DNA of 62,994 bases, counting the filler, from Dimargaris cristalligena (taxonomy: Eukaryota): the NCBI GenBank assembly GCA_003614675.1. It is 24 parts of 24 records of this genome, joined end to end, with 100 filler letters (N's around TTAATTAATTAA, not from the genome) between each part and the next. Parts side by side here need not be neighbours in the genome. Positions count along the whole stretch, not along the records: positions 5,346 to 7,914 come from ML004175.1; 23 more parts are not named here. One strand, 5' to 3'. Made by a program: the position numbers and the translations under genes. How positions within the stretch are numbered: position 1 is the first letter of the stretch; each line of letters opens with the position of its first letter. Positions 2,674 through 46,525 of the stretch are shown in pieces. The notes beneath the pieces are model-generated. The model worked only from the letters and a program-made list of their open reading frames with translations. It was not told the origin of the DNA and made no database searches.

Positions 2674-4500
2674 CTGATCCAAGACTCTTCCAGTTCCCAT
2701 GAGAGTCTTCCCAAGGCAAAGCCATCCAGTTGGATTCCTTACCTATCCACACCTTAGTCTCAGTAGTATTTTCCTAGGGACCTTCCTCTGGAGCTGTCCC
2801 CACATATATATAACCAAGCCCCCACTGGGATTGGTTCAATTCCTTAGCTTATCCATACCCCCCAGTTTACCCTAATAAACTCTATATATGCTCACTATTG
2901 TGCCAGTGTTTTGAGGTACCTCCATTCTGGGATTAAGGCTGGGGTTGAACTCCCCACTCCCCCCTGGGCTGGAAGGTTCACCAGATGTTAGTTTCAAGGG
3001 GTCAGTGCCTGGGTGGAACATAGAGAACTTGGGAAATGGTCCTTCAGCTAGTCAGATTTGCTCAGAGCTGTTATCAGAGGTTGAACTGGGGTATGGTGGA
3101 AAATGTTCCATGTGAATCAATCCTAGACTCCCATTGTTAGAGTTAGGTACTGGAGGAGCCATGGTGGCTATGTACTAATGAACTGGTTGTAAAAAAAAAT
3201 AGAGTAAAATAAAAGTAGGTAAAAAATGTGGTAAGTTCACCACACCGAGGATAGGCTTCTAATGGTAGGTAAGGCTTAGGCTTGGCCAAGTGGTCTCTAG
3301 CATTAGGATAGGGACATGGTACTAACCAATAAAGGATAATGCAGGTAAATGTCAGGGATATGCAGCAGGCACACTTACTAGTTAGTACAAGGGGGGTGAG
3401 TATACTACCATAGGCAAAGATAGTATTCCCCTTCCATGGGACAAACTAGGTGTTTTCCCTCACCATATGATGCCTACACATGCCAAAACCCACCACTACA
3501 CATCTTAAGTGGGTAAATGGAAGATCCTGTTTTGATGATCATTGTTTTGCCCTGGCCACTTCCATTTTTTGACTGACCTGCTACTCATTTCTATCTTTAT
3601 TAACTGCATGATTCTGGATAAGTCAGCAGGACTAAGCCTTCACATTGGCATAAGAGAGCAACATCAAAGTTCTCCCTTATTTATATCTTATTTTCCATGA
3701 ATGCCTCAGAGGATCTGTGGTATTCTTATCTTCTAATTTCCATTCTTCCATATCTCTTTTCCCCTTTTTCACATATCTTTTAAACTTAAAGACCCAACCA
3801 GTTTTCCCCTTTGTGGTTTTATGGTTGTTAGTCCATTTAAGGACATGGTCCAAATGTCATAATACATGTTTAGTTCATGTTTTCATTATATATATATTAA
3901 CTTCACCCAGTATCAGCCAAAGACTTCAACCAGAAGTTGATTTTATGTTTTTCTTATACCTTTTATTTACTCTATTTTTTTTTACAACCAGTTCATTAGT
4001 ACATAGCCACCATGGCTCCTCCAGTACCTAACTCTAACAATGGGAGTCTAGGATTGATTCACATGGAACATTTTCCACCATACCCCAGTTCAACCTCTGA
4101 TAACAGCTCTGAGCAAATCTGACTAGCTGAAGGACCATTTCCCAAGTTCTCTATGTTCCACCCAGGCACTGACCCCTTGAAACTAACATCTGGTGAACCT
4201 TCCAGCCCAGGGGGGAGTGGGGAGTTCAACCCCAGCCTTAATCCCAGAATGGAGGTACCTCAAAACACTGGCACAATAGTGAGCATATATAGAGTTTATT
4301 AGGGTAAACTGGGGGGTATGGATAAGCTAAGGAATTGAACCAATCCCAGTGGGGGCTTGGTTATATATATGTGGGGACAGCTCCAGAGGAAGGTCCCTAG
4401 GAAAATACTACTGAGACTAAGGTGTGGATAGGTAAGGAATCCAACTGGATGGCTTTGCCTTGGGAAGACTCTCATGGGAACTGGAAGAGTCTTGGATCAG
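2674..4500. repeat. 535-bp perfect inverted duplication (2674-3208 / 3966-4500), probable amplification fold-back chimera
   Basis: The contig start CTGATCCAAGACTCTTCC... is the exact reverse complement of ...GGAAGAGTCTTGGATCAG ending at 4500. The arms look identical although they consist of old, decayed repeats. Confidence 0.9.
3401..4278. mobile_element. 878-bp element (probable solo LTR, family E) nested in a family-A LTR, 5-bp TSD GTGAG
   Basis: GTGAG at 3396-3400 and 4279-4283. Termini TATACTACCA...TGGCACAATA. Homologous copy at 55735-56689. Confidence 0.7.
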
Positions 4501-4671
4501 TGAGTTGAGTATTTGGGGTGCAAAGCATTGGGGTCAAATGAGTGGGGTTATAAATAAAGGATGACCCCATAGGACCAGGGGTGACTATGGGAGGGTTAAT
4601 ATGGCACTATAAGGCCTAATAAGGATGGATAATTGTTAAGTCCAGATTAAGTCAGATTAGGAAGGCTAACA
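4279..4671 (-). mobile_element. Family-A LTR, remainder after the nested insertion (other part at about 3245-3400)
   Basis: Matches the copies at 19659-20240, 42388-42972 and 45938-46519. Confidence 0.8.
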
Positions 4672-5045
4672 AAAGGTAATGGGGATTCTGAGAGGGCCCT
4701 GTAGGGATGTAGTAGTTGATGAGACATATGCCAGGTGCCCCCCAAAAGCGAGAATTAGGGAAATAGGGGATGATGAGTGGTAGTAGAGCAGGGGTGAGAA
4801 AGGCCCTAAACTATGATGGCTTCTTTTGTTAATATAAAGCCAAATTTATAGTTAGTATCAAATTATCGTCTATCTCCAGGTGGGTTAGAGTTGCTGTAGA
4901 TCAGAGCCCAATGGTTAGGCTGATTGAACTAGGGTGATTTACATCTATAAATGCCTCAACAATGAATAGTAGTAATAAATGGGGAATGGTCACCCCAAAT
5001 TCACTTCTCCCCCTCCCACCCTAGTCACCAAATAACCAGTTTCAA

Positions 5046-5245
5046 TGTCACCCCTCCTAATCCGGCCTAATCCATCCACTAATGATTGCCGTTATAGTAG
5101 GCCATATAGCACCATATTGTACCCCCAGTCCTAATGGGCCGGACATCATATATCATCTTACCAGCTGGACCCCCCCCAGAGTTCACACTACTCACTCCTA
5201 GGTGATCTTAGTGTCTTCCAGTTCCCATGGAAGCCTCTGCTTGTA
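5046..5245 (+). mobile_element. Family-A-related LTR start, truncated by the contig end
   Basis: TGTCACCCCTCCTAATCCGGCCTAATCC matches the LTR start TGTCGCCCCTCCTAATCCGTCCTAATCC after the integrase at 31918 (minus strand). Confidence 0.75.
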
Positions 5246-5345: not shown

Positions 5346-5433
5346 AGAAAAAAAGCCACTTCATACCCTGCATAATAATAATAATAGTAATATAATTAGT
5401 GTGGCTTATAGGGGGACAGTACACCTTGCCACA
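5346..5433 (-). mobile_element. Family-B LTR end inserted into a Gypsy integrase
   Basis: Begins TGTGGCAAGGT on the minus strand. Matches 24531-24614. Interrupts the pol frame after PFDLEEW. Confidence 0.7.
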
Positions 5434-7860
5434 CCACTCCTCTAGATCGAACGGCAGGGTACAGTCTTGCCCATAGACTAAACGGTAAGGGCTGAATCCC
5501 GTCGTGGCTTTCACAGTAGTCCTGTCCGCCCAGAGCGCTGTATGCAGAAACGTAGGCCATTTCTCGGGTTGGTCGCGACACAACTTCTTCAGGCAACCGA
5601 CAAGGTCTCGATGGCCATGCTCAATCATGCCATTTGTCTGCGGATGGTAAGTGGTCATGAACTTCAGGGTAAACCCATCCTGTCGAGTGGCCCTTGCCAC
5701 TATCTTTCCCCATAATTCTCCACGATCGGCCAGAGTTTCTCCAGGGATACCGAACCGCGAGATGACATCGTCATACAGAAATTGGTACATGGTGGCGCTA
5801 CACTTATCGATGAGGGCACGCGCTTCCACCCAGCCCGTCAAGTCATCCCGGGCTACTGCGAGATATCGGTGTCCTTCTGTTGCCTCTTCGAGTTCCGTGA
5901 GATCGATTCCTATCCGGCTGAAGAGAGTGGATCCAATTGTCACCTTGAGGGGTACTTGAACGGTCCCGTAGGGGTTGTGCTGACACAAGTCACAAGTGCG
6001 GATGACTTGCTCCACGTCTCTATAGAGCTTAGGCCAGAAAAATCGACTGGCACACATGCGATACGTAGCTTTTACACCTCGGTGACCGCTAGGGTGTCCC
6101 CCGTGTATGCTGGTCACCACTCGGATTCGTTCATCGGGATTACTGATGACTCGTCGTGGCAATCCGAGTCTCTCGCGTTTGAACAACACTCCATGGCTCA
6201 TTAGATACTGTGAACTCTGGCGTCGGATTCCGGCTCGCTGCTGTGGTTGAGTGTCTTCTGGGAAAGTTCCTTCCTGGAGGAACCGAATGATTGCCTCAAA
6301 ATCCCCGCCGTCACGTTGACGGGCTTGTTTCACTTCGCTGACTCCGAGGTAGTCGCCAGGATCTGTTAACACCTCGATTTTCACGGTATTCACACCCGTG
6401 CTTCCGAAACCGTCTTCTCCTCTGTCACCAATGAGGTCCTCCTGCGGTACCCGAATCATCTCAGGCACAGCAAAGTGCTCTAGCACGAGCTGAGCGACAC
6501 GGTCTCCTTGGTGAAGGTCTTGAACTCTGTTGGACTCGTTCGATAAAATGATGCAGATTTCGCCTATGTATCCTGGGTCAACGACTCCCCCCCCCACTCG
6601 AAATCCTCGAAGTGCCAGACTACTGCGGTCGGCGACTCGGATATATGTTCCCTGGGGCAGAGTGCAGTGCAACCCTGTTGGGATGCGCTTCACCTCGCGT
6701 GGCTCAAAACGCGCATCTATGCGAGTGGTCACATCAAATCCCGCATCGGTTGGGTGTTTTAGACTAGGTAGGGGCATACCATCTCGTAAGTATACCTTCA
6801 GCTGGCCGACTTGAGGTGGTTCTCCCAGCCCCTTTGTTGGCAGTCGACTGAGCGCGTCAGCCACTGGATTGTCGACCCCCTTGATGTGGCGGATCTCGAA
6901 ATCAAATATCTTCAAGTATCCTATCCATCGGCTAGCTACATCTCCAGGTAAGTCGGGACAGTTGATTAACCCAATGAGAGGTTGCGCATCTATCTCCAAG
7001 ATGAAGAAAGTGCCGTATAAGTAGCGCTGCAACTTCTTCACCATCATGTAAGTGGCAAACAGCTCACGCTTGATCTGGGCGTATCGACGCTCCCGCTCCG
7101 AGAACAGGTAGCTCTCGTACCATACCACGTATTGATTTCCTTCGTCATCCGCTTGTCCTAGCACTGCTCCCGCACCGGTAGGACTGGCATCGGTAGTGAG
7201 CACAAGAGGAGGAGCGTCCTTCCCGTACCTAGGGTTCTTAATGAGCGGTGCCTGTGTGAGAGCCTTCTTCAAGGTCGTAAACGCTTCTTTGTGTTCTGGG
7301 CCCCAATGGTACTGGATCCACTGTCGGGTCAGGGCATAGAGGGGTCCCGCTATTATCGAGAAATGAGGTATCCAGATTCGCAAGAACTCACACGTGGCGA
7401 TAAAGGATCACACTTCCTTCGCGTTCGTCGGCCGGGTCCATGCAAGCACCGCAGCTATCTTGGAGTCCGTCGGACATCTTCCCTCAGTGGTACACATGTA
7501 CCCGAGTACCTCGACTTTTGTCATACCAAAGGCCGACTTCATGCCACTGATGACTAGCCCGCTCTTCTGCAAGTCGGTAAGCACTTCGACTACGTCGTTT
7601 GCATGACAGATTACCTTTCGCCGAATTCCGGTGACCTCTTCTTCTCCGACTTGCTTCAGCAATCGGGTCTTCACCACTCCATTGTCCACGAATAGGGACA
7701 AGCGATCCGGCATGTGCCAATGGAGTACAGAGGTTAACACTCGTTGAAATGTACTTACGCTGTTAGCCCAGCCCATGGGTAACCGAGTCATCTGGACCAG
7801 ACCTATGGGTGTGTTGATAGCGAAGATATCTCGGTGTAAAGAACTGAAATCAAATCCTTG
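5434..7860 (-). mobile_element. pol: Ty3/Gypsy pol (RT - RNase H - dUTPase - integrase), pseudogenised
   Basis: RT motifs RLPMGWANS and FVDNG (expected xxDD). In-frame TGA at 7408-7410. RNase H LTTDASPTGAGAVL...NPVADALSR. Integrase H-x-GHRG...CDLC, GIDL, ADRGE, HPQTNGMIE. Confidence 0.92.
6390..6800 (-). CDS. dut: Trimeric dUTPase domain in frame within Gypsy pol
   Basis: All five dUTPase motifs in order: AGFDV, RSSLA, GVVDPGYIGE, GDRVAQL, RGEDGFGSTG. Boundaries approximate. Confidence 0.93.
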
Positions 7861-8014
7861 TTTCACATTGAATTTATTGGTTACCCGAGTATTACCTATC
7901 CTTTGACATAAACCNNNNNNNNNNNNNNNNNNNNNNNNNNNNNNNNNNNNNNNNNNNNTTAATTAATTAANNNNNNNNNNNNNNNNNNNNNNNNNNNNNN
8001 NNNNNNNNNNNNNN

Positions 8015-17107: not shown

Positions 17108-18517
17108 TTAAACTAATAGAGGTCGGTCACTTCGTCCGTTCGGGTCCGGGTAAGTCATACTTGGAATCCCAATGTCGCTGAAGCCCGATTCCGGAAGATC
17201 GCTGTAGTCTAGCGCGTCATAGTATTCGTCATCGGATGCCCCCTCATTATCGCTGAGAACTGATTTCAGAGGATTATCATTGAGTTCCTCTTCATCGCCA
17301 ATTGATCTTAGCTCCATCAACTGAGCGTTGGTGGGCCACTTAACCAGCTTACCCCTCAATCTAGGGTCTGAGCTCTTGGACATTCCAGGGGTGGGTGTAT
17401 ACTCCTTTAATCCCCAATAGTTACTGTGATCCGCAATACTACAGTTCATTAAAGATAGATCAGGAGAACATGCAGGATCGTTGGCAAACGCTTCGTCGTT
17501 GTACAAACATTGGATGGTGTGTTTCCCGCCTGGAAGGATGTAAATTTCGATTTTGGCGTGTAAATAGGTGCCCAGTAGGTGGACATTAGGAACTAAGTTG
17601 AATCCAGAGGTTACTAAAGTGCTCGGAATTAGTTGCTTATTGTACTGTTTCACGAATTCCATATTACCGACTGGCGGACTTCCAAAAGTTACCAGATGAG
17701 GCTTTAGGACGCCCTTGTATTTGGAGACGAGCGGGTAGTCAAAGGCAGCCAGGTTGGCAATGGCTGCAGCAGTCAAAACAAGTGAGTGATGCAAATATAC
17801 AATATTTAGGGTTTACAATTAGACATGACAAGGGTAAATGCAGATTACTAAGCACGAACTGTGCTATATTCGCCCAATTGTGGTGTAATTAATGTCGATC
17901 GAATTGTGGATGCGACTATATATAGCATGCCAAAACATGGGAGTTTCCAACCATATATTACCGACTATAAGAGCAGGCAAGTCCAAGCATACTGGATCCG
18001 TAAAAGTAGGCCGGAGAACCCCCCCCCCCCCCATAATTACTTACCGCCACCCAGGGAATGCCCTAGAAAGTACATGTTTTCGCTCTGGGGTTCGCCATCA
18101 TCTTATCGAGGGCTGCAGTATAAGGCTTGATGCACTGGCTATAGACCGAGAGGAATCCTTTATGGATCGGAATATCCATATTACCCGGCCAAGTAGTTGG
18201 CCAGCCTATGGCATCGTACACAAACGTAACCTTGGTTTTGGGGGTGGAGCCACGGAATGAAACATAAATAGTTTCGCCCGTTCTGTCTTCAGCCACGAAC
18301 CCACGGCAAGTGGCCGTCGATGGACTTTCAAAGGCAATTACGGACCCGGTATTTATAAAACCATCCTTCCCAACTTCCTCGGCCAATGTTTCCATGAGTC
18401 GATAGGCGGTAAATGCGTAACTAATGGATGAAGAACAAAACAGATACGTGTAGTGCCATCCGGAGGTCGGCACTTAACCCCGGACTGTGGATGGCCAGTC
18501 CTCATCACCAGAGGGCG
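17108..18517 (-). pseudogene. Class-3 lipase (alpha/beta hydrolase), probable pseudogene
   Basis: IYVSFRGS and IHKGF. GHSLGG follows after a 1-nt frameshift near 18080. GT-AG intron 17764-18044. Then TFGSPPVGN and DHSNYWG. The catalytic DxVP reads NLVP. Confidence 0.8.
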
Positions 18518-23435: not shown

Positions 23436-23918
23436 CATTGGTCCCCAAACATGAAATATGCACTGTTCCCCATTATAAACTGAACCACTTGTAAACAAGC
23501 TACTAGTCTACTTATTGTAGGTTCCCCTTTACCAACTAGTCCTCTGAGCTGGTTTAATTAATTGCATATTAAATAATTTAAAGGGTTTCCCACACTTAGT
23601 ATCACTAGGATAAATAATAGCAATAGCTGGCTGGTGGTTCATTCTGCAAAATTGTTCAAAATGACCTCCATTTCACCCTTTCTCTATTATTATCTTACTT
23701 ACCCTCGTAGCTCACATATCTTGGTTATTGGTGTATAAAGCCAACTCCGCTGCATAAATCGAGTGAATGGATGCGCCTCGAGGCGGTTGTGGTCGTGATG
23801 GAGNNNNNNNNNNNNNNNNNNNNNNNNNNNNNNNNNNNNNNNNNNNNTTAATTAATTAANNNNNNNNNNNNNNNNNNNNNNNNNNNNNNNNNNNNNNNNN
23901 NNNAGCAGCCATGGTCAC

Positions 23919-24614
23919 TGAGTGGTAGTATCAAGCTACTAAAATGAACAATAAAAATGTATCAAAAGGGCAGGGTGGCTTCTCCAGGTGAACTGGTTTG
24001 TCACTCAAATAAAAATTCAGTATAAAATACTTTTTAATAAAAAGACCAGTTTAAACTAAGTAATAATAATACCAGTTTGGAAGCTTAAAAGGACTATTTC
24101 CATGGCAACCACAAGTTTAAAAGGTATATAAATCTAAGTAATCTAGAGTAATAGTAAAAGTAGTTTTATTATAAAGAAAAAGATAGAAGAAAATTGATAC
24201 CCTAAAATTGACATACAGAAAAAAAGAGGAAAAAAAGTTTGCCTTATATATGAAAATGCACACTATTGTATGTACCAATTACTTGCATGAGTGTGCTAAT
24301 CAATTGTATGCATGGCCTGATCACCTGCATTGATAGTGCATATTATCCCCTAAAAATGTGAAGACTTTTAGTTTTATAATAAAAAAAATACTAAGCTATT
24401 ATCTGTATAAAACAGAGAATTATTAAAGCCAAATAGCCTGCAGTGAACCTGCATAACTAATTAAAAAGGGAAAGAGGATTTATAAAGTAGAACCAAAAAA
24501 GTAAAAGATAGGAATAAAACTAGTTATACCAGAAAAAAAGCCACTTCATACTCTACATAATAATAATAGTAATTTAATAAGTGTGGCTATAGGGGGTTAG
24601 TCTACCTTGCCACA
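23919..24614 (-). mobile_element. Family-B solo LTR (~700 bp)
   Basis: One end matches 5346-5433 and the other matches 21262-21558. Confidence 0.7.
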
Positions 24615-26542
24615 CTGCTTTGCTTCCAAATACATTAGATTATATAATTTTTAGTCATGGTATGCATTACACATTCTTCCTTTGGCTATTGCATCATCCA
24701 TATTTGTACAGCAGCTGACACAAAAGTAAGGAGTCAGTTAACAGTTAGAGAACATGGTGGAATAGATATTAGTTAGTGGTATAAGGTGGACTACCAACTG
24801 TATCTGAATGGCCCTGAATATGCCTATGCCAAACCATAATTAGGGGTGGCCTCATACCCCCCTTCTTATCCAATGCCCTCCACTTCCACCAAATTGGGCA
24901 TACCTTTTCTATAGGGGATTGAATTCCATGGCAGTTTTTTCTAAAGGCCAACTTAGTGTAGTATTTATCCTATTCCACCCAGCTACATCAACTGACAACT
25001 TTATTACCCAGGATTTAGAGGGTCAGTGGGGGATTAATATTGTTTATTAGATGGGATTAAGCACCACATTACTGCAGCACTTGGCTTTCCTGAATTGCGG
25101 CTAAGATGGAGAAGATTATGAAAACTTAAGGCAAAAGTACTTATAGTAATAGCTACTAAGTGATACAGCCATAGCTGCAATGAACTACAACAATAGCCAT
25201 AAGCAGCTATGAGTATTAAACATTCCAGGCAGTTATACAAAAAAATGCCTGAGTATCATATGTTACTACTACTGGGAAAATAATATGAATCTAAATAGCA
25301 CTTGTCTTAGATATAGTTATCCAAAAGACTAACTGGCTAAATAGTAGATGCCACTATCAAAAGACAGTATTTCCAAGGTAATAGAATATAAAGAAACCAC
25401 CAACCTGGGTATATATAGTATGAAGAGAAATATGTAAAAGGACTAGTAGCTAAAGATATACCCAGAGGGACCTAAGTACATAGTAGTCCAAAGAGGGGGG
25501 ATAAAGTAAGTGAGAAATGATCATCAAGAGGACCAAAAGTATAATAGGCTATCTAGCCACTACTTAAATAAGTGAATACTAAAGAGTAAACTAAACAGAC
25601 TAGGTATGTAGAAGGGATACCCAAGGTAGTATCTAGGAGGTAAGAATAGAAAACATAGACTTATATCCAAAACTATAGAAGAAAGTAATGGAATAGAAAG
25701 GACTACATTATATAGTATCCAATCCTATAAAAGTAAGTAATCAGTAAGTATATAAATAATAGGAGTAACCAAATAATATTTGGTAATAGAGGGTTAGAAA
25801 AGACTAAGTATTATTTGGCATCCATTATTAGAAAGGATAATAGTATTGTAGCCATCCCAGGAGGAGTTAATAGATATGTAATAAACAGGACTAAATTATT
25901 GGATACTATTACTAGAAAGGACAATAGTATTATAACTATTCTAGGTGAAGTTATTAAGGAAGTATGAGTAATAAAAGGAAGGTAAATAGTACCCTATGAA
26001 TAATAAATATATATAAGGGAAAAGAAAGTAGAGAGGGTAGCATAATAGAAATTCTACTAAAGACTTATTTGATAAAAGAAGCAAAGTAACCATACTACTA
26101 GTAATTAAGAGCAGTATCTAGTGGAGAGTAGTACTTGTCATCCTTAACAAAGGCAGCCTTATCCTCTAGGAAGTAAACTAACTAAGGCTCTGGGTCAAAT
26201 AGCTTACATCTAGTAATATAAGAGTGTTGGTAGCCTATACCACACCTGGTACAGTAGTACTTCAACCAAAGAGAGCCACACCTCATGTAGTGAACTTACC
26301 ACATTTTTACCTACTTTTATTTTTTATCTATTTTTACACTTATCAGAAATACACCCCTGATGAGTGAATGAGCCCCTGCCCCTGCCCCTGATGAGTATGG
26401 TCATTTTTCCTCCATTTTTCATTATTATATTGTTTTTTCTATNNNNNNNNNNNNNNNNNNNNNNNNNNNNNNNNNNNNNNNNNNNNTTAATTAATTAANN
26501 NNNNNNNNNNNNNNNNNNNNNNNNNNNNNNNNNNNNNNNNNN

Positions 26543-31804: not shown

Positions 31805-33165
31805 GGGCTATCAATGATGTTCGGCCTGGTTAGGGCCGGGGGGTATACTATGGCGCTATACGGCCTGATATGACGGCAGTCATATCGGTTGGATTAGGAC
31901 GGATTAGGAGGGGCGACATCACCCTCTCCTACTGGAGCCTCGTCCTCGAGGCCTTCGACGAATGGAATGATCTGGTCGCCAGAGACGCGCTCCTGCGGGC
32001 GGCGCTTGTCGTGTATTGCGGGGGCGATGGTGTATGTATTACCACCATGGATGCCTTCGATGGTGGCGGGGCCTTTGAAGGGGGCTTGTAGTGACAGGGG
32101 CCCATGGGGAACTCGGATGAGAATGCGGTCGCCAACGCGGTACTGGGTCGGGTCGGTCGACTTAGGTCCTGTTTTATGCCGGACGTGTTGGTAGGCATCG
32201 TGGAGTCGGTTACGCAGTTCGTCTACATAGGTGGACCCGGTGGAGGCCCGTAGAGCATCTGGTTCGGGGTTCAGGGCGACGTCAACTGGCATGCGTGGGT
32301 CGCGTCCGTACATCAGGTAGAAAGGTTTATTCGCGATGACCCGGACGTGTGCGGTTCGGTAGGCAAACAGATGTAACATAAGGTGTTCGTCCCATTGAGG
32401 GTCATCACCAGAGGAGTGTTTTGCAATCATGTGCTTCAAGGTCCCGTTCAGGCGTTCGATGGCTCCGTTGCTTTGCGGGTGGTAGGGCACGGCTAGGCAG
32501 TGGTCTACTCCGAGGAGTCGCAGCGTCTGCCATAGGATACTGGCGGTGAACTGTTTCCCGCGATCGGAGACCAGAATGCGGGGGCAGCCATGAGCGCTGA
32601 TGATATCCTCGATCAGGAATTGAATGACGGCCTGTGCCGTTATGGTGGGAACCGCTCGTGCAAAAGGCCATCGGGTAAAGTAATCGACCGCGATAATGAT
32701 AAACTTGTTGCTGTTTCGAGTGGTCGAGAAGGGGCCGATGATGTCGATTCCCAAACGGTCGAGCGGTCCAGTGAGGGGGGTGACCAGTTGCGCCGGCAGC
32801 GGGGGGTTTTGTTGGTGACGTTGGCACACCTCGTATCCCCGGATGTGCTCCTGTATGTCGTTGTTCATTGACGGCCAATAGACCGTCTGGCGGAGGTGAT
32901 GGAGCACTGTTTCTACTCCTAGGTGCCCTGCACCAGGCCCTTCGTGGGCGGCCTCTATTGCAGCGGCCCGGTGAGTTTTCGGCAGCACCAAGTGGTTCTG
33001 TCCACCGGGGCCTTGCTGATACAGCAGTTGATCGTGGATCACAAAGGTTTGATTCTTGCCGCGAAATCGTCGGAATGCGCGGTCTCCCATTCGGTCCCGG
33101 AGTAGGGTCACTTCGGGGTCTGAGAGTTGGTCCCTGAGCATCTGGGCCGGTGGTATGGTCACGGC
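31805..33165 (-). mobile_element. Ty3/Gypsy integrase with PPT and start of the 3' LTR (young, CpG-rich)
   Basis: ORF 31894-33162 with H...GHLG zinc motif, GIDIIGP, SDRGKQF, HPQSNGAIERLN and KGPA. Polypurine tract AGGAGAGGGTGA directly before TGTCGCCCC at 31918. Confidence 0.92.
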
Positions 33166-35744
33166 GAGGACTCTCGGTGGGGCATTGGAATTGGAATTGC
33201 CATGTGGATTTACGAAAAAGACAATCCAATGGGCAAGGTGAAAGAATCATTCCAGAGACCCGGCTTTATATATGCAGCCATGATGTCTTTATCGCCACTA
33301 TTGATAATTAGAGTACAGATTGGATTGGTAGTAGTTTCTAATGTTGTATTGTCTTAAATTTACGGCCAGTTACCCTGTCTCATCCATATAGTCATTTCAT
33401 AAACCACCCCATATATATATATAGGCCAACTGCCGCTAGTTTATATCAACATACAAATTTATAGATATTTTAAAAATATATGGCAAATATGGAATGACAC
33501 TGACAACCACCACCCAAGAATTGTCTATTGGGTGGTGGAGACCGTTGTTTGGCCTCGGTCTGCCTCTGTTAGTTTAGCAGAGGGGTCGTGTGACAAAATC
33601 CCTCCCTAATATATGGGAAGGACTATTGTTCAAGCCTATCCCCGAGACTCTCAACAGACTAAGAGTGGTTAATTCGGGTGACATAACTGGATAACCATTT
33701 GGGAAATTTGGATTTTATTACATTATAAGTGTTGAAATTATCTGTCTAACATTAATAAGTAGTGGGTGTAATACTAACTGGTGCAGAGGGCCCCTACAAG
33801 CAAAAGGGGCTGTTGAAAATAGTATAGGCAATGTAGTGGGGAGGTATGGGAGAAAAAAGTAGGAATGTGTAGGTTGTGCTGCCGTGGGCAGCCGGCCAGA
33901 GGCCGTGTAAGCTCCAGCACATATTGCTAATCCAAAAAGTAGTCATACTTTGGATAAATTCAAGGCCACCAGACAATTGACGAGTTATTTCCATGGGAAC
34001 GGTCCGGGGTCATTAATATTATTTTATTTCTTTATGCTAGCTGATTCTCTTTTCCTTCAGCTTTCCAAATTATACTTCCATTTACTTTTCCATCTATTAT
34101 TGATGAAGTTATAGGTCGTCAAAGTCAATGATGATTTTAAAGCCATGACAATTGACCACCTCATATTACCACTTTTATGCTATGACAATCCTTTATGAGT
34201 AGGGCTTGGGAATAACCAGTCTCCGGTGGAATCCTTCTTGGAGTCACACCATACAATTGCTTAAACATGAATTCCTTTTTTATCAATATCCGACATGAAG
34301 AAGGACTGGGAAGACTGTGTCTTCCAACCTTANNNNNNNNNNNNNNNNNNNNNNNNNNNNNNNNNNNNNNNNNNNNTTAATTAATTAANNNNNNNNNNNN
34401 NNNNNNNNNNNNNNNNNNNNNNNNNNNNNNNNAAGTCGAGGTTGCGGTTCGGCATACGGCTGGTCGGAATACCGATAGCACCGCACCCCTCGGCGTCTCC
34501 CCCGGCCCCAGAACCAAGCCGGTCCTAAGGACAACTGCACCACTAAAGGGCCCCCCCGGCCTACCCAAGCCACCCGCCGCCCGCATTTTCGAGGTGGTCG
34601 AAAGCCCCGAAGTTGCTATATAATCTCAGCACCTCGTAGTTTAAGGTGGATAATACACTTATAGAGAAACCAATCTATGGGAACTCCACCTAATACCACT
34701 TACAACGGATAAGTAAACCAGAATTATCCACTTCTGTTAAATCCCCCTCCCCCTCCCGACCACACTCGCTTCATTCATTGACACTATTTTAGCGAGTGGT
34801 TGTTCTTTGACTAGGACACCGCAGCTAACCAATGGCGAGTCCATTGACATTGAAATATATTTATAAAGTATGCATTACTTATTAGTTAGATAGCACTATC
34901 ATCATTATCAATAAATTTACATGCAATTATTACGCGCAAGGCGGATTCGGCCTTCACTTTCACTTATATTAAAGATATACTCGATTTTCAGGAAATTGTA
35001 GTGGGAACATTTCGGAGTAACCCGACTTTTAGATTGAGGAAGGGGGTCCACGGTACTCGAATTTCTCCGATACAAATAATTTCGCAGGAAAATAAAAGTA
35101 GGACAGTGTAATTATTCGCCTGGCAAACTAGTTTCAAAGAATTTTCCTAATAAGAAACTGCCATTTATAAGTAATATTAAAAGATACTCGGCTTCAACTT
35201 GGTGTGCGCATTGCTACTCTTCAACCGCCCTAAACTGGTTTAAAATGACACCAGCCCGAAGATTCGAACGAATTATTAAATAAGCAGATATGTATGACCG
35301 CGCGGCAAGAAATGCCCAGCATCTTATTACTAATAAAATAATTAGCGCCACATGGCTATAATATATAAAATGGAGTTTATTGGGATATTATCGTACTATA
35401 ACGGATTGGATAGAATAGCTACCCAACCATTTGATATAATGTGAGGAAGGTCACATTTAGGACAGGAGGAGGAGGCTGACACGGCGGTCTGAGATTATTT
35501 AGCGGGTGGTGTTATAGAGAGTGTGAGGGGTGCGGGCAGGAGATGCTGGCGGGATGGGTAGGGTCGGGTGGGGTGGGCTCCATCTAGAGGATTTGGAGGA
35601 ATCCTTAAGATAATAATAATCGAGTGCGCTAAGCGGGGTCAAGGAAGAACCGAGCAACGATATAGCTTACACCAAGGGTCACTGTCGAATCCTTCTTTGG
35701 TGGGCTAACAATCAAGCGCGATCCGAGATTTGGGATGTGGAAAA

Positions 35745-36108: not shown

Positions 36109-37170
36109 CTCCCGGAATTTAGTGTCCGGGCTACTTAACAGGATCCGCTCAGCCTGAGTTGGTTGCCGCCATTGACCAAGACCCGAGAGTATCGAATATT
36201 TCGACCGTCTCATTTTTAGAGCTACGGCCCAATGATTATGGTGTAGCCGTGTTTTCTTTGAGATGTACAACTCCCTCCTCCTTCCTCTACCCCTTCAAAC
36301 ACCCACAGATATGCAATGCGCTTAGTCAACTCTATTGCCTTTGCACACTAACAATACACCTTCCCTAGGATCCGACCTGATAGTACCTGGCTGCATGGTT
36401 GAAATGGCCTAAAGTCCAGGAGACTAAGTGCATTTCCTAATTGAGCCCCAAGGAACAACAGGTACGTCCATGACCACCACGTCCCTCCTGGTTCACCCCG
36501 CCTCCTCCCTACCCTTATCCCCAGGTGATCATTTATGCATTCAAATTTGCCATGACCTTATTCAGGCCAATCTAATAAAAACGGTCGGATGGCGGTCATA
36601 TCCGAGAATGCCCCTAAGGAGAGAATGAAATAAAATGGGTTCCTAACCTCCTGAGCCTCCAGGCCCATGTCTTTAATATAATGCTATTAATATCGGGTGG
36701 TTAGAAGTGCATCGCATTCCCCTATCTATTATCTACCCTTATACCCTCAGCTAACGTGCAGGAAATGTCACATATGTTCCGGAGTTTCTCCCGACCAGAT
36801 GTAACGGGTCCCAAGCTACTATACCCAGAGACCAACTAGGTACCCAACCGCCAACCGCCACCCGGTCTATTTTCAGTTTTCCTAAACGTACGCACATCCA
36901 ACCAACTTAAATGGTTGGCAAAAAGGTGCATGGATTCATTATAATAAATGTGNNNNNNNNNNNNNNNNNNNNNNNNNNNNNNNNNNNNNNNNNNNNTTAA
37001 TTAATTAANNNNNNNNNNNNNNNNNNNNNNNNNNNNNNNNNNNNNNNNNNNNAATACTCCCCCTTGCTGCCACCTCTTGGAACAGCAAGTCTATCATCAC
37101 CCTTCCCTTTTTATCACCTATCTTTTCAAATAAAGTTCAGTTTTCAAGGATTTGAGTTCAGTTCTTTACA

Positions 37171-39162
37171 GTATTCATGCTCATTATTAACCTCAATTGG
37201 GGGTGGAGGATCTTGAGTGTGACCAGTAATAGTATTTTCAGTAAGGGGTTCAAGGAGGGAGACATAAAATACATGGTGTATACTCATTGATAGTAGTAGG
37301 TCTAGGTGATAAGCCCATTGGCCAACTTTGGCAATGATAGTAAAAGGGCCTAGGCAGTTGTAGTTAAGCTTTGAGTTAAGTCAGGTGGTCTTGATGTGTT
37401 TTCAAAGGAGCCAGACTTTAGAGCCAATAGACAGGTTAGGCTCAGGCAGTTGTTTATGCTTGTAAAAGGCAGCATACTGGTGGTTTGTAGATTCAATATT
37501 CTTAACTAAAGAATTGTGAACCTCAATTAGTTCTGAAGATAGGTCAGTTACTGCAGGTGTATTACATTTTGTAACTGCAGCAGACATTGGTAATGTAATT
37601 AGGTGATGGGTAGTATTGGCAAAGAATGGGCTAGTTTTGGTAGTTGAGTGTTTTGAGTTATTGTAAGAAAATTCAGCAAGGGGAAGGAGGTCAACCCAAT
37701 TATCCTGGAGGTGGTCACAATAGAAGCAAAGGTATTATTCTAGGACCTAGTTTACCCACTCTGTTTGGCCATCTGATTGGGGGTGGAAGGCAGTTGATAT
37801 GTTTTACTTGATATGGAGGAGTTCCATCAGGGCAGACCAGAAATGAGAGGTAAAGGTTGAGCCTCAATCTGAAACAATATTAATAGGGAGGCCATGGTGT
37901 TTATAGATATGGGTTAGGAATAATTGGGCTGTAGTATGGGCATTAACATTGTCAGTAGTTGAAATAAAGTGTGCCATTTTAGTAAAGTGGTCAACAACTA
38001 CTAGTAGTGCAGTAGAGCCACTGGAGGCTGGGAGGCCAACAATATAATCCATAGAGATTGATTTCCAAGGGCCTTCAGGGATTGGAAGGGACTGGAGTAG
38101 TCAATAAGGTTTGTGACAAACTAGTTTACAGTGATTACATTAGTCACAAGAGGATACATATTCTTCCACAAATTGGTGCATCTTGGGCCAGTAGTAATTC
38201 TGGGATAGTAGTTCAAGGGTTTTAGCTTGGCCAAAATGGCCAGCAGTTGGGGAATCATGGTGATCTTGGAGTAAGCGTAATTTGATACTGGTAGTGTTAG
38301 GGATATAGATAAGTCCATCATAAAGAATAATATCATCAACCAGGGAGAAAGGTGGTAGGTTATTGGTATTTTCGGTTGGGGAATTGGGTAATGGGTTATA
38401 TAAAGAAGCTAGCACTTTAGCCAGGGCAGGATCAGATGTATAACTAGTACATATATCATCAATAAGAAAGGAAGGGGAAGTTAAGGTATTGAGGGTACAA
38501 ATAATAAATTAGTCAGACTTTAGTAGTGCTTGTGAACTATTACACAAGGTGTTACTCCCCTCCTTAGGGACAAAGTCAGGGTGGTGAGATAGGGCATCAG
38601 CCTTGCCATTCTTATGGCCAGGGATATACTTAATAACAAAGTCACAGTTAGCCAAAAGTTGGGCCCAGTGGACTTAGTAGTGATTTAGGGATTCTGTAGT
38701 GGTAAAATACTCTAGGTTCTTATGGTCAGTGAGTATTGTGATTTGGAAATGAGCACCCTCAAGGTAGGCACACCATACCTTGAAAGACTCCACTATTGCT
38801 AACATTTCCTTATTATAAATTTCATAGTTCAGTTCAGTAGGAGTGAATTTACGAGAATGGAAGGTAATAGGGTGGAGAAGACCATCATCATCTAGTTGAG
38901 AGAGGACTCCACCAATGGCAAAGTCAGAGTCATCAGTTTCAATAGTTATAGGCTTAGATAGATCAAAGTATTGAAGGACCAGGGCTGATGTAAATGCAGA
39001 TTTAAGGGCATCAAAGGTAGCTTGGGCTTCAGGTGACCAATCCCATGGAGTATCCTTATAAAGGAGGCAAGTGAGTGGTACTATAATTAATAAGAAATTT
39101 CGAACAAATTGGTGGTAGAAGTTGGTAAGACCTAGGAAGGACTGGATATGGGAGAAGTTCAA
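37171..39162 (-). mobile_element. Chromovirus-type Ty3/Gypsy pol pseudogene (RT end, RNase H, integrase, chromodomain start)
   Basis: [75 protein letters not shown]...PPPPIEV. Many stops and frameshifts; nearly CpG-free. Confidence 0.92.
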
Positions 39163-39699
39163 TCAAGCTATATAATGATTTGAATGAAAGTTCCAATTGA
39201 TGCAGCGGGACTATTTTTTTATCGAAACGGGAAATAGGCACATCAATGGGACTTTTTTTAAAAATGAGGGAAAAATGATCCCTGACCCTGTGATCAATCA
39301 TAAGACCTATAATAAATCTATGAATAATGACTCAGGAAAGCCAAAAAAAAAAGTGTACTATGTAAATTGATGTCTAGCAACTGGATTAGTGAAAAATTAG
39401 CTTTCTTTAACTACTTTTTACTATTTTTCAATACTTTAGAGCTACTTTCCACTACTTATTAAAGGACTATTCCTATACTGAATTAATTTACAATAAACTT
39501 AAACTTTCTTTTATATATAATCTTGCAGCTAGTGTATAGAAACTGTGTTTTTTTAATCAAACTACCCTTCNNNNNNNNNNNNNNNNNNNNNNNNNNNNNN
39601 NNNNNNNNNNNNNNTTAATTAATTAANNNNNNNNNNNNNNNNNNNNNNNNNNNNNNNNNNNNNNNNNNNNCCTATCGATAAAGCATTTACTTATTTTGA

Positions 39700-40224: not shown

Positions 40225-40938
40225 TCAATTTCGAAAACAATTTTTTTTCAAGCACGCTTGGAAAGAATGTTTTGTTATATCTGAATTTCCATAATAGTGC
40301 AAATTTAAAAGTATGTTTTGATATGCATTTTGATGAGTTTTGTCCAACTCGATAGCTTTCAAATATAATTCTACAGCTGAAGAAAAATCACCAAGAACTC
40401 CACGTAAATGTCCAATGTTTACATATATCTTCGCCAACATAGCTTGTGAAGGTTGCAGTTCGATTGCGCGATTAAAACAATCAAATATTTTTGACATGTC
40501 CTTGAACTCTTGACTATGCAACAAAGCTAACCCCAATGCGTTTAAAAGATCAGCAGATTGAGGACATTTTTCCACCGCAATTCTACAATATTGCAACTCT
40601 AAACTGTGCAAGCGCAACGTTCTGTAAACATCTATCAACCCTATGTATCCCATCTCAAAACATGGATCTGCCATTAAACACTTTTGATAATAAGAAATTG
40701 ATTTGTCGTAATCTCCATACTTCGTGTGATATATGAATCCATAGTTGTTTAAGACGTCTGGACTTTCCGAATCATATTTCATAGCTTCGTCAAGATAACT
40801 GACAGAATTATCAGGGTCAAATATACAAAGACATGTGCATGCCCTGACCATCTGTTCTTTGATTTTTTTATATTCTGCTCCTTCATGACATACCATTTTA
40901 CTCGTGTTCGATAAAATGCTTTTTGCTTTTTGAATCAT
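40225..40938 (-). CDS. TPR-repeat protein resembling the N-terminal half of SPINDLY/GT41-type glycosyltransferases; possibly frameshifted or truncated
   Basis: TPR signatures DVLNNYG, DLLNALG, IYVNIG...AVELYLKAIELD, then AYQNILLNLHY. An upstream ATG at 41017 would join the frame if the A7 run were A6. Confidence 0.8.
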   Translation of the reverse strand: MIQKAKSILSNTSKMVCHEGAEYKKIKEQMVRACTCLCIFDPDNSVSYLDEAMKYDSESPDVLNNYGFIYHTKYGDYDKSISYYQKCLMADPCFEMGYIGLIDVYRTLRLHSLELQYCRIAVEKCPQSADLLNALGLALLHSQEFKDMSKIFDCFNRAIELQPSQAMLAKIYVNIGHLRGVLGDFSSAVELYLKAIELDKTHQNAYQNILLNLHYYGNSDITKHSFQACLKKNCFRN

Positions 40939-41241
40939 TTCTGCGCGAGAAAACTGTATGCCACTTTCGAAAAGTTCGTTCGCATGTTCTATGTGTTTTT
41001 TTAATGTACAATTCCATTCTTGACTGTCTTCTTATTTAAGTTGAGAACATTAATGTTTCTTTTTTTTTCACCACGTTTTGCTTATATTTTTACTTTCCAT
41101 TGTGTTTGTACTTTTCTTTTATCGATGATACAATCCGAAATTTGAATGTTGGCCGAAAACATGATGCATCATATCAAGTACCAATGTCCGCAACTCACGC
41201 GTTTTTTTTATTATTTGGTATAATTAAACCACAAGACAAAA

Positions 41242-42182: not shown

Positions 42183-42387
42183 NNNNNNNNNNNNNNNNNN
42201 NNNNNNNNNNNNNNNNNNNNNNNNNNTTAATTAATTAANNNNNNNNNNNNNNNNNNNNNNNNNNNNNNNNNNNNNNNNNNNNCAGGGGCAGGGGCTCATT
42301 CACTCGTCAGGGGCGTACTTCCGATAAGTGCGAAAAATAGATAAAAATAAAAGTAGGTAAAAAATGTGGTAAGTTCACCACAGCCAG

Positions 42388-42972
42388 TATTGCCCAGGTT
42401 AACTACTCTTAGTCCATCAAGAGTCCTAAGGATAGGCTTCTAATGGTAGATGGGGTGTAGGCTTGGCCAAGCAGGTTCTAGCATTAGGTAGGGGTACAGT
42501 ACTAACTAATAAAGGCTACAAATACAGGTACAGGCAAAGGATATGCAGTGAGCACACTTACTAGTCAATACAAGGGTGGTGGGTACTTATGGAGTTTATT
42601 AAGGTAAACTAGGGGGGTAAGAATAAGCTGACTCATCTAACCAGTCCCAATGGGGCCCAGTTATATATATGTGGGGGCCACTCCAGAGGGAGGCCCCAGG
42701 GGAAGGATACTACTAAGACTAAGATATGGTAAAATAGGCCAATTAGATAGCTGTTAGGGTCTAGAAGACTCTGATGGTAACCAAAAGAGTTATTGAATTG
42801 GCCCTCAAGTAATTAGTATGAAGCAGTGGAGTCTGGAAGGGGAATGGTTATATGTTATAGGGGTGATCCCATAGTACCAGGTGTGGTCATGGGAGGGTTA
42901 ATATGGTTCTATAAGGCCTAATAAGGATAGACACTAACATATTGGGATTAAGGTAGATTAGATGGACCAATA
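42388..42972 (-). mobile_element. Family-A solo LTR
   Basis: Colinear with 19659-20240. Termini mutated to TATT...AATA. Confidence 0.85.
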
Positions 42973-44119
42973 CTGGCATCTAAATTTACTAAACAGCTTA
43001 TATGTCTTTCCCCATATATCTCTATTTTATTTTATGCCCTTATTTGACTAGTTAACCAAATAACTGATTGGCAGCAAAGTTAATTCCTGTGATATTCAAA
43101 ATCTTTTACCCATTCAGTTGGTAAGCTCCACATTAGTAGATAGCTGACTTCACTTGCAAAAAGAAGTTCCTGAGTATATAAGTAAAATCCAATAGGACTA
43201 TTAATACTATGTTGCAAGAGGTAAAGTCTACAGTACAGAGAAATAGTGCAATAATTAGAGCTATATGATTACCTCCCTGGAACCCTACCACACTAGTGTC
43301 AAAGCTATTGAGGCAGAATGGGGGTATATCTAACTTAACCAGGACCTGGGTGAAAAAGAGCAGATGGACCTCTTCCTACTAGCCCAGATGTTAGCCATTC
43401 AACCTGCTGATGCTATTTACCAAGTCATGGAAAATCTAGCCCAGAGTACCATGGAACTACAACCCATTTATACTGCACTAGGCTTGTACATATATGATCC
43501 CATCTGTATACTGGCCAGTGAACTGATATCCCTGAATGGGTTGGATTTGCCCAAAGTCTTTCATAATGTTGTTGTGCAGGAATCCTTGTGGGGGATCATT
43601 GTGATTCTGACCTTCAAGGGGAACTTCCTCAAACTGAAGGATCTGGCTAGAAAAATCCATAGTGGTGCACTGCCCTTTCTCTATGAGGTAGTGACATTGA
43701 TTGCCTATCTGATGCTAGAGTATGGACTAACTCAATATCATGACTGGGCTCTCAAAAACATACTCTATCCTATCAATGATCAGACAATGGCCTTTTATTC
43801 AGTTTTGAGAAAGTAAGTAACTTACTTAATATGGCAGAAGTTTATCCAGTCTGTATAACAAGAAATCCATTTGATGAGGCAAATATTACTGGTTAAAAGT
43901 TATTCTCCCATATATTACCCCATATACATATTGTGTAAAATATTATACAGTTGGGTTAAAGTTCACCCATATCCTAATTAGAGGCTACTTAAATAATCCC
44001 CAAAATGCAGACGACCCATTCCATCTCAATAGTGAAGCCTGTTGCCCCTGTCAGGATAGTCCCATACCTTGGGTTATCCAAAACATAGACATATATAATG
44101 AATAAAACATATTTGGGTA

Positions 44120-44679
44120 CTATCAGCCCTCCTAATCCAACTTGATCCAGACCTAACAATCACCCATCCTATTCTCACCTTATAGCACCATATTGACCCT
44201 CCCATAGTTACCTCTGGTACTATGGGGTCATCCTTTATTATGTAACCCCACTCATTCAACCCCAATGCTTTGCACTCCAAACACTCAGCTTGCTGATCCA
44301 AGACTCTTCCAATTCCCATGAGAGTCTTCCTAATGTGAAGCCATCTGGTTGGATTCTCTACTTATCTACACCTTAGTCATAGTAGTATTTCCCTTGGGAC
44401 CTCCCTCTAGAGCTATCCCTGCATATATATAACCAGGCCCCACTGGGACTAGTTCAATTCTTTAGCTTATTCATATCCCCCAGTTTACCTCAATAAACTC
44501 TATACACTCATTTCCCCTTATGCTAACTAGTAAGTGTGCCTTCTGCATGTCCCTGACATTTACCTGTATTTGTAGCCTTTATTGGTTAGTACTATGCCCC
44601 CATCCTAATGCTAGTAGCCTGCTTAGCTAAGCCTAAGCCCCACCTACTGTTAGAAGCCTATCCTTAGGACTCTTGACAG
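44120..44679 (+). mobile_element. Family-A LTR, near complete
   Basis: Reverse complement of 45960-46519. Confidence 0.8.
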
Positions 44680-45937
44680 TGTTGTGGTCACAATTAATAC
44701 CACAGGGTAATATAGCCTGATAACCTTATCAGGGCCAACTGGAGCAGCCTCAGTCTAGTGGGAAAAACTAACTGGCTAAGGGAAACACGCACTTNNNNNN
44801 NNNNNNNNNNNNNNNNNNNNNNNNNNNNNNNNNNNNNNTTAATTAATTAANNNNNNNNNNNNNNNNNNNNNNNNNNNNNNNNNNNNNNNNNNNNCTCTTT
44901 CAAGTGTAAATACTCCCCCTTGCTGCCACCTCTTGGAACAGCAAGTCTATTATCACCTTTCCCTTCTTATTATCTATTTTTTCAATTAAAGTTCAGTTTT
45001 TAAGGATTTGAGTTCAGTTCTTTACAGATAGGTAATACTTGGGTAACCAATAAATTCAATAAAAAATAATGGAAGGCAAAAAAGGAAAGGGAGAAAGCTA
45101 TTTTTAGCTGCATTTTGAATAGAGGTACAGTCTGATCAGGGGCAGGGGTGCATTATAGTTAAGGGTATATAATATACTAATAGAAAAAGTACTATACTAA
45201 TGGAAATAGAGGAAAAATGACTATATTTGTCAGGGGCAGAGGCTCATTCACTCATCAGGGGTGTACTTCCATTAAGTATAATAAATAGATTAAAAAAAAG
45301 TAGGTAAAAATGTGGTAAGTCCACTATAAGGGTACTAAAAGGTGCCACCAAATAGTAAAAAAGGGAATGCCAATTGGTAAATGGGAGTAGCCAACTGGAA
45401 AATGGGAGATAGAGATTCCCTTTTTTGCATGGTGAATGTAGTAAAAGGGAATGGGGCCCTAAGGCCCTGAAATTCAAATGGGGAATTGACATTGGCCAAT
45501 GTGGGCCAATGGGAATCCAAATTCAATTGGGATTTTAAATTAGGAAATGGGAGATGAAGATCCCCAAATTCAAATGGGAATGTCCAATGGGCAAGTGGAA
45601 ACCATGCTTACCCAAATTTGAATGGGCCTGTGCATTCCCTCCAAGTGGGCCAATGCTCACCCAAATTTGAATAGGCATGTACATTCCTTTAAAATAAGTT
45701 ATTAATAAATTAAGTTAAAATAGACTATAGGTTCCTAAAGGGAGTTTAATTACCCCTAAAGTCAAAATTTAATAGGTAAAAGGATGGATAGATAGTATAA
45801 AGGAATACTACCTATCCCAATAAACTGGTTGGACTGGCCTAAAGTACTGCATAAAATTACTTGAATATTACTACCTATGGGTAAAATTTGTCACTCACTA
45901 GGCTGGCAAGGAGCTAGTGAATAAATAAACAGGGTAG

Positions 45938-46519
45938 TATCACCTGGGTTAACCACTCTTAGTCCATTAAGAGTCCTAAGGATAGGCTTCTAATGGTAAG
46001 TGGGGCTTAGACTCAGCCAAGTGGGCTATTAGCATTAGGATGGGGGCATAATACTAACCAATAAAGGATAAGTGCAGGTAAATGCAAGGGATATGCAGCA
46101 GATACACATACTAGTCAATATGAGGGAGTGAGGGTATATAGCTTATTGAGGTAAACTGGGGGATATAAAGTAGACTAACTCATTAAATTGGTCCCAGTGG
46201 GGCCCAGTTATATATACATGGGGAGAGCTCCAGAGGGAGGTCCTAAGGGAAATGCTACTAAGTCTAAGGTATAGGTAGATAAAGGATCTGACCAGATGGC
46301 TTTGTATCTGGAAGACTCTCATGGGAACTGGAAGAGTCTTGGATTAACAGGTTAAGTATTTTGTGCAAAGCATTGGGGCCAGAAGGAGAAGGGTTATATA
46401 ATGAATGATGATCCCACAGTACCAGGGGTGACTATGGGAGGGTTACTATGGTGCTATAAGGCCTAATAAGGGTGGATGATTGTTAAGTCCAGATTTAGGT
46501 CGGACTAGGAGGGCTGACA
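45938..46519 (-). mobile_element. Family-A solo LTR
   Basis: TATCACC...GCTGACA; colinear with the other copies. Confidence 0.85.
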
Positions 46520-46525
46520 GATATA

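Follow-up and report, generated by a model that had tools for sequence, protein, structure and literature searches.

What is a complete dUTPase doing in the middle of a retrotransposon polyprotein of a mycoparasitic fungus, and how did it come to be there? The question is raised by one contig of Dimargaris cristalligena, which occupies positions 5346-7914 of the 62,994-base stretch of DNA analysed in this work (hereafter the window, whose coordinates are used throughout). An original prediction had placed at 5434..7860 a Ty3/Gypsy retrotransposon with a complete dUTPase between its RNase H and integrase. We find that the domain and its position are borne out, but that the whole retrotransposon is not, as what survives is a truncated and mutated fragment of pol. 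The feature lies on the minus strand, a correction that the earlier account needed; the predicted start fits the boundary between pol and an adjoining repeat, and the predicted end overruns into the flanking repeat by about 26 bases. Our preferred interpretation, to which we assign a probability of about 0.8, is that the window holds a dead, truncated copy of a D. cristalligena Ty3/Gypsy family, the Pol of which carries a complete dUTPase between the RNase H and the zinc finger of the integrase.

The minus strand of the contig presents one long frame with a single stop (5347-7914), along which Pfam profiles recognize, in order, RVT_1, RT_RNaseH_2/RT_RNaseH, dUTPase, Integrase_H2C2, and rve (Table 1). 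The order reverse transcriptase (RT), RNase H (RH), and integrase (IN), represented by Gypsy-type domain families in one frame, is that of Ty3/Gypsy Pol proteins, and all 91 near-length pol matches carry subsets of the same Gypsy-type families. The rve match falls under the Pfam cut-off; the integrase is still 47% identical to the metagenomic protein P0001 over residues 346-657. Its motifs are HGGHPSGH (6082-6105), with the His pair of the zinc finger, CDLCQ (5980-5994), with the Cys pair, GIDLTE (5893-5910), ADRGE (5716-5730), and MIEHGH (5611-5628). A linker of 14 residues separates the ADALSR at the end of the RNase H from the dUTPase domain, and the N-terminal extension of the integrase on the other side is common to relatives without a dUTPase.

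The dUTPase domain itself matches PF00692 with 86.2 bits against a cut-off of 22, covering profile positions 4-129 of 129. It also exceeds the cut-off of TIGR00576, the NCBIfam model of the dUTPase superfamily (107 versus 102.55 bits), and stays below that of the bacterial equivalog NF001862 (88.7 versus 103). All five dUTPase motifs that had been proposed to lie in frame between NPVADALSR and the integrase zinc finger could be located, namely AGFDV (6730-6744), DRSSLA (6613-6630), GGGVVDPGYIGEI (6556-6594), GDRVAQL (6487-6507), and RGEDGFGSTG (6394-6423); among the residues present are the Asp of motif 3, in the usual naming the catalytic one, its Tyr, and the RGxxGFGSTG arm at the C-terminus. 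In an alignment of 84 dUTPases, 4 columns are invariant and 17 nearly so, and the window copy retains them all. Its best match in the PDB is a plant dUTPase (4oop, E 1.4e-24), and solved dUTPases from plants, an algal virus, vaccinia, yeast, human, feline immunodeficiency virus (FIV), and equine infectious anemia virus (EIAV) are matched at E-values of 1e-24 to 1e-18. Enzymes of this trimeric class assemble as homotrimers, in which neighboring subunits contribute motifs to the active sites. A three-copy model of the domain scored 0.83 against 0.00 for the best control, with the runs agreeing on at least 77% of contacts and a predicted local distance difference test (pLDDT) score of at least 79, and the modelled interface takes in residues of motifs 2 and 3. 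A calibration with two copies saw this mark attained by 21 of the 30 proteins whose solved structures are pairs of one chain and by none of the 23 solved as single chains. Because dUTPase trimers have already been solved, this result may stem from the model's memory of them, and we take it as a likeness, not as proof.

A comparison with relatives of the surrounding Pol domains speaks to the origin of this arrangement. The closest of these, the Joint Genome Institute (JGI) metagenome protein P0001, is 54% identical in the RNase H and 47% in the integrase, and has 22 residues where the window copy has 157. PF00692 is listed in none of the 91 near-length pol matches. Among longer proteins, recovered by a search with residues 150-480, only one of the 13 matches lists a dUTPase, and this protein (P0242) is of the Copia type; the absence of a full-length RH-dUTPase-IN protein among those 13 is weak evidence. 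While an earlier scan of metagenomes with a single protein as the query recovered no relative, one with an alignment of the window pol and seven relatives as the query yielded 80 loci, 30-50% identical. None of these 80 loci has a dUTPase in any of the six frames at an E-value of 1e-3 or better, with the window itself as the positive control (2e-57), and the 65 that span the junction have 43-73 residues (median 68) between the equivalent points versus 205 in the window copy. A BLASTP comparison of the RNase H and integrase parts with the 187 dUTPase matches returned only P0167 and P0255. A lineage-specific gain, proposed earlier as an independent capture, thus fits the data, as P0001 and the 80 related loci lack the dUTPase and other element-borne dUTPases lie elsewhere in the tree. 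The economical reading supported by these comparisons is that the ancestor of the Dimargaris family acquired the dUTPase once.

That such a family exists is indicated by three further dUTPase gene models from Dimargaris: P0255, a 174-residue protein from a separate 5,641-base contig that bears the NCBI name Dimargaris cristalligena; P0256, of 115 residues and 69% identical to the window dUTPase; and P0103 (RKP34075.1), of 103 residues and 49% identical to it. Together with the window copy they form one clade, with a support of 98 in the Shimodaira-Hasegawa-like approximate likelihood ratio test (SH-aLRT) in a quick 217-row tree and of 100/97 in a careful tree of 80 rows hand-chosen from these; both trees leave out matches covering fewer than 90 profile positions, as well as P0092, a sequence identical to the query. 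Substitutions among the four copies avoid the conserved dUTPase columns, a pattern that hints at selection: where 80 other dUTPases show a conservation of 85% or more, 21 of 23 columns are the same in all four, versus 36 of the remaining 111 (Fisher p 1.5e-7). The two changed conserved columns are both in motif 5, in P0256 and P0255.

One might suppose instead that the RH-dUTPase-IN layout is a chimera of a cellular dUTPase gene and retrotransposon DNA produced by assembly or whole-genome amplification. The assembly is indeed very fragmented, the window being built from 2.5-kb contigs; the published genome project of D. cristalligena describes the use of single-cell amplification (PMC6784888); and the NCBI annotation of the contig consists only of a stand-alone dUTPase-like protein of 129 residues (P0092). 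Nevertheless, a single frame crosses both junctions with pol homology on each side, the dUTPase has neither a stop nor a start codon of its own, and contigs from three sequencing runs span both junctions. Run X1 has a single 2,457-nt contig that matches the window without any difference from 5406 to 7860. The 2,219-nt contig of X3 extends from 5406 to 7623 and carries an additional C within nine consecutive G/C bases at 6586-6594, and X4 contributes two contigs, one for 5407-6595 and the other for 6587-7393. As a single study with two samples produced all three runs, and the assembly may itself derive from X1, their independence is incomplete. Stronger evidence comes from P0255, which contradicts the chimera reading: on its different contig, it opens with the final 21 RNase H residues (FDFEIRHIKGVDNPVADALSR) and passes directly into a dUTPase 71-73% identical to that of the window copy. 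The sharing of this junction marks the passage from RNase H to dUTPase as a family trait, and the junctions did not prove chimeric, which was the outcome that the original prediction had named as its own refutation; a chimera is scarcely credible. A different doubt concerns the role of the domain, which might have been retained for a nonhydrolytic job, for instance as a spacer within the protein structure or as a module for regulatory binding, as others have argued for certain dUTPase-like proteins of viruses. The dUTPase-related region of bovine immunodeficiency virus is described as needed though inactive (PMC4261571), and the motif-5 Arg has been lost in P0256. Yet the catalytic-motif columns are all retained in the window copy, the pattern of conservation resembles that of active enzymes, and the TIGR00576 cut-off is exceeded, making this a highly improbable account.

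Less readily set aside is the proposal that the dUTPase was not captured independently but was handed over from another dUTPase-bearing retroelement by recombination of co-packaged RNAs. An exhaustive dUTPase search over 1.84 billion representatives gave 25,050 matches, the best single-domain ones outside Dimargaris being 43-49% identical, and retroelement-borne dUTPases are frequent among the best of them: 6 of 24 longer matches scanned carry retroelement domains. Their layouts are different ones, namely protease (PR)-dUTPase-RT-RH, Copia-type, Pol_BBD-dUTPase, and dUTPase followed by rve. In the quick tree the Dimargaris clade falls in a 15-row group (SH-aLRT 87) with P0167, a Gypsy protein of the PR-dUTPase-RT-RH layout, and a cluster of Basidiomycota proteins in the ESM Atlas combines a dUTPase with Integrase_H2C2 and RT_RNaseH. 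In the careful tree, on the other hand, P0167 and the Copia-type and other element-borne dUTPases are spread over several groups apart from the Dimargaris clade, which instead attaches weakly (94/80) to an unnamed 168-residue protein; moreover, identity to any element-borne dUTPase is 33-40%, not above that to cellular enzymes. We consider such a handover unlikely. The donor had earlier been sought in the host, a bacterium, or a giant virus. The placement in the tree names no donor. The enzyme of Penicillium, the one named fungal cellular dUTPase, lies in another group of the careful tree. A tree constrained to unite it and its neighbor with the Dimargaris clade is worse by 14.8 log-likelihood units, yet the approximately unbiased (AU) test does not reject it (p 0.358); therefore, it cannot be claimed that the domain is not host-derived. 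A scan of viral contigs with three Dimargaris dUTPases returned no relative, and no link was found between the dUTPase domain and the giant-virus capsid fragment on a neighboring contig (see below). The host, a bacterium, a virus, or another retroelement are all possible donors.

Several observations weigh against our preferred interpretation of a dUTPase-bearing Dimargaris Gypsy family, or limit its reach. The window copy is certainly dead and nonfunctional, for reasons given below, and no full-length element of the family was found among the copies and matches seen. P0256 and P0103 are known from gene models of the dUTPase, and that they occupy the same position within a Pol is presumed. Motif 2 (ADRSS) and motif 3 (DPGYIGE) depart from the PRSG and DADYRG of the plant enzyme, and P0256 carries a Gln in place of the motif-5 Arg; dUTPase activity is therefore treated here as predicted only. 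Loss in all sampled relatives, as opposed to gain in this lineage, still stands formally as an alternative. Finally, the assembly includes bacterial-like and giant-virus-like contigs, the published description of the genome project has D. cristalligena grown together with its host fungus (PMC6784888), and the host of the element is assigned from NCBI names, shared flanking repeats, and the organism label of five runs.

Table 1. Features of the dUTPase-bearing contig, in window coordinates
Feature	Coordinates	Strand	Evidence
Flanking high-copy AT-rich repeat, in place of the remaining integrase	5346..5434		87% identical to window 24531-24615
Integrase: H2C2 zinc finger (5974-6138) and catalytic core	5437..6138	-	PF17921 E 7.4e-16; PF00665 E 1.1e-4
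Linker and N-terminal extension of integrase	6139..6393	-	aligns to P0001 residues 333-420
Complete trimeric-type dUTPase	6394..6774	-	PF00692 E 2e-24
RNase H, with NPVADALSR at its end (6844-6870)	6844..7305	-	PF17919 E 2.6e-24; PF17917 E 3.7e-19
In-frame TGA stop, between RT and RNase H	7408..7410	-	Arg at the aligned place in P0001
Reverse transcriptase, C-terminal two thirds	7411..7834	-	PF00078 (RVT_1) E 3.6e-9; 33% identical to P0002
Flanking high-copy repeat pieces, in place of the N-terminal part of RT	7835..7914		match 45002-45060, 55359-55406, 37145-37170

The decay of the window copy is extensive. Homology to pol is confined to approximately 5437-7834, beginning in mid-RT at HRDIFAINTP (7834) and ending after LPFDLEE (5437-5457). 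Pfam and direct-repeat searches found no gag, aspartic protease, or long terminal repeats (LTRs) on the contig, the sole direct repeat being a chance-like pair of 20 nt. The catalytic motif of the RT reads FVDN (7681-7692) versus FVDD in P0001 and FLDD in P0002, and, judging from the codons, both this Asp-to-Asn change and the TGA stop look like CpG transitions. The TGA is spanned by the X1 contig with 0 differences, and the X3 contig also covers its site. It is because gag, the protease, the N-terminus of the RT, the C-terminus of the integrase, and the LTRs are missing, and because of the TGA and the Asp-to-Asn change, that we regard this copy as dead.

The outer 88 and 80 bases of the contig are AT-rich pieces of high-copy repeats, which recur on CpG-stripped contigs of the window. 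In four runs, summed contig depth is 1e4-3.5e5 in the flanking repeats (3e4-1e5 at 5346-5434 and 1.6e5-3.5e5 at 7835-7914) versus 7-22 in pol (X1, X3, X4), and many run contigs stop matching at 5433-5435 and then diverge. Contigs of all four runs also join 5433, 5435, or 5443 directly to 7834 or 7835, skipping the pol fragment, with a shorter side of 23-27 nt at these flank-to-flank joints. We rejected these joints as proof that pol lies inside one repeat copy, or that they represent a deletion derivative, as sides of less than 30 nt fit two separate pieces too; the fragment may lie inside one repeat copy (e.g., as cDNA captured at a break) or between two. Likewise rejected was the reading of NVKQGFDF in the flank as a part of the RT, which had been suggested by a weak alignment to the RT motif of P0002: it belongs to a repeat module that other contigs also contain, and copies from run X5 instead carry a genuine YDQ motif there. 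Six window contigs (2674-5245, 23904-26442, 37053-39570, 42283-44794, 44895-47404, and 55323-57820) have a CpG observed/expected (o/e) ratio of 0.01-0.09 and lack long open reading frames (ORFs). These CpG-poor contigs contain the repeat pieces that border the pol fragment. The dUTPase-bearing contig (2,569 bases, G+C 0.518), unlike these six, at 0.09 or less, keeps its CpG, with an o/e of 0.92.

Are there better-preserved members of the family? A separate study of this organism contributed run X5, in which, among the matches listed, eight contig pieces differ from the window copy by 4-11%. By hand translation, those reaching upstream of the truncation read YDQIPIDPRD before RDIFAINTP, resembling the GYDQ...RD of P0002, and those reaching downstream read LPFDLEE and then RTWISLPWN, resembling the ETWLTIPW of P0001. 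Because these loose ends continue as pol past both truncation points, their sequences indicate that more complete copies exist. X5 cover is absent at 6464-6635 within the dUTPase, which could be due to divergence or filtering. In the integrase, 20 of 40 X5 differences are synonymous and 22 of 40 fall in the third codon position, these being the best-supported 40 of 153 and not a random sample; the pattern is only suggestive of selection among copies. Given that the window copy keeps its CpG in a CpG-stripping genome and that longer copies at 4-11% divergence exist, the dUTPase-bearing Gypsy family may still be active.

In the public annotation, these Pol frames are represented just by their dUTPase part, under the name of a stand-alone "dUTPase-like protein" (P0092, P0255, P0256, and P0103). 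P0092, for example, with 129 residues (window 6394-6780, minus strand), takes an internal Met as its start and stops at a point from which the frame continues. At least these four gene models are best read as domains of retrotransposon Pol proteins and not as cellular genes of nucleotide metabolism, and comparative studies of this reduced, parasitic genome should leave them out of nucleotide-metabolism counts.

The rest of the window offers a varied picture of the assembly. It joins 24 contigs of 2,486-2,573 bases in falling size order, with spacers of N44-TTAATTAATTAA-N44 between them, and across these contigs G+C ranges from 0.335 to 0.606 and CpG o/e from 0.01 to 1.25. The first contig (1-2573; G+C 0.40, CpG o/e 1.05) encodes at 1-888 on the plus strand the C-terminal 295 residues of the major capsid protein of a giant virus of the nucleocytoplasmic large DNA virus (NCLDV) class (Capsid_NCLDV E 1.9e-47, Capsid_N E 2.5e-23), beside which an ORF of 289 residues on the opposite strand (1705-2571) matches no Pfam family; this contig stems either from a virus sequenced along with the fungus or from a viral fragment that had integrated. 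The contig at 26543-29074 (G+C 0.606, CpG o/e 1.25) encodes a type II/IV secretion ATPase (T2SSE, E 1.3e-37) and looks bacterial, whether by contamination or from an associated bacterium in the assembly. A second Gypsy-type integrase lies at 31897-33246 on the minus strand (Integrase_H2C2 1e-15, rve 9e-13) in an ORF without a dUTPase; at 28% identity to the integrase studied here, it belongs to a different family. Fragments of nonribosomal peptide synthetases are found on both strands of 47505-50012, with condensation and adenylation domains on the plus strand (47506-49104) and a condensation domain on the minus strand (48759-50012) that overlaps the former by approximately 350 bases. The minus strand also encodes a class-3 lipase fragment (17111-17812, E 5e-5) and a tetratricopeptide-repeat protein (40228-41031, on a contig of G+C 0.347).

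How might the dUTPase have served the element? We propose that the ancestor of the family captured a dUTPase gene once, and that in active copies the domain would trimerize, either after cleavage by the protease of the element or within Pol, and would hydrolyze dUTP near the site of reverse transcription, with the effect that less uracil enters the cDNA. By analogy with the lentiviral enzyme at the same position, such a uracil-limiting role is most likely for intact copies only. More speculatively, and with somewhat less than even confidence, we suggest that an old and diversified Ty3/Gypsy lineage of this early-diverging mycoparasite has reinvented the lentiviral Pol layout, with its dUTPase under purifying selection and subfamilies at 49-73% identity. 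If true, uracil in retroelement cDNA would be a recurrent selective problem well outside animals.

The earlier statement that dUTPases are rare in LTR retrotransposons is too strong, as Gypsy cases have been published from fungi, rotifers, and planarians (PMC2864245, PMC5408684, PMC6431247). Among fungi, dUTPase-bearing Gypsy elements are described from Phanerochaete chrysosporium, Tuber melanosporum (Tmt1), and Postia placenta (PosPlaTy3-3, -4, and -5), with the dUTPase at the N-terminus of Pol, at its C-terminus, or in the PR-RT interval, and independent acquisitions from different sources have already been argued for them (PMC2864245). The PosPlaTy3-type families share with the window family a fungal Gypsy Pol with an in-frame dUTPase. 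They differ in their hosts, Basidiomycota or Ascomycota versus Zoopagomycota, and, going by their published description, in position, since the window dUTPase lies between RNase H and integrase. The rotifer elements Juno, Vesta, and TelKA and the giant Gypsy elements of planarians likewise have a dUTPase in Pol, but between PR and RT (PMC5408684, PMC6431247); the dUTPase of P0167, a metagenome protein of this layout, lies outside the Dimargaris group in the careful tree. In Entomophthora muscae, another zoopagomycete, PF00692 is reported as enriched alongside retroviral families (PMC11105155). Closer in content is an ESM Atlas cluster of 51 eukaryotic members, of 447 residues and commonest in Basidiomycota, with PF00692 in 100%, PF17921 in 94%, and PF17917 in 55% (feature score 0.93); it has the same three domains as the window copy in a protein too short for an RT. 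A second cluster, of 135 members, combines a dUTPase with Integrase_H2C2. The order in the former, known from domain percentages alone, is probably RH-dUTPase-IN, reflecting either the same Gypsy clade or convergence, which suggests that this layout is already present in public protein sets.

The interval between RNase H and integrase is, as had been pointed out for this locus, the one in which the nonprimate lentiviruses (FIV, EIAV, and visna/caprine arthritis encephalitis virus) encode their dUTPase, an enzyme of about 130 residues that forms a homotrimer and is released from Gag-Pol (PMC4531489, PMC2238898) and that lowers dUTP such that less uracil enters the cDNA (PMC4531489). In the literature surveyed, this position is described only for these lentiviruses and ERV-L-type elements (PMC4531489, PMC2238898), although an earlier description is possible. 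The position is shared but the backbone is different: no Retroviridae-type RNase H or integrase surrounds the window dUTPase, these parts matching only the Gypsy-type families PF17919/PF17917 and PF17921, and the FIV enzyme (1f7d, E 3.6e-19) does not match it more closely than do the plant, algal-virus, and poxvirus enzymes (approximately 1e-24 to 1e-23). Because of this Gypsy-type backbone and the lack of any special closeness to the FIV enzyme, the sequences point to the likeness to the lentiviral layout being convergent. Set against the surveyed literature, the Dimargaris family is a positional variant of the known dUTPase-Gypsy combination, convergent with lentiviruses and from a phylum without a description there, and introduces no new principle. 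It adds a fourth, lentivirus-type insertion site to the known Gypsy dUTPase captures, places one such capture in Zoopagomycota, and strengthens the case for dUTPase capture as a recurrent, convergent answer to uracil incorporation in reverse transcription.

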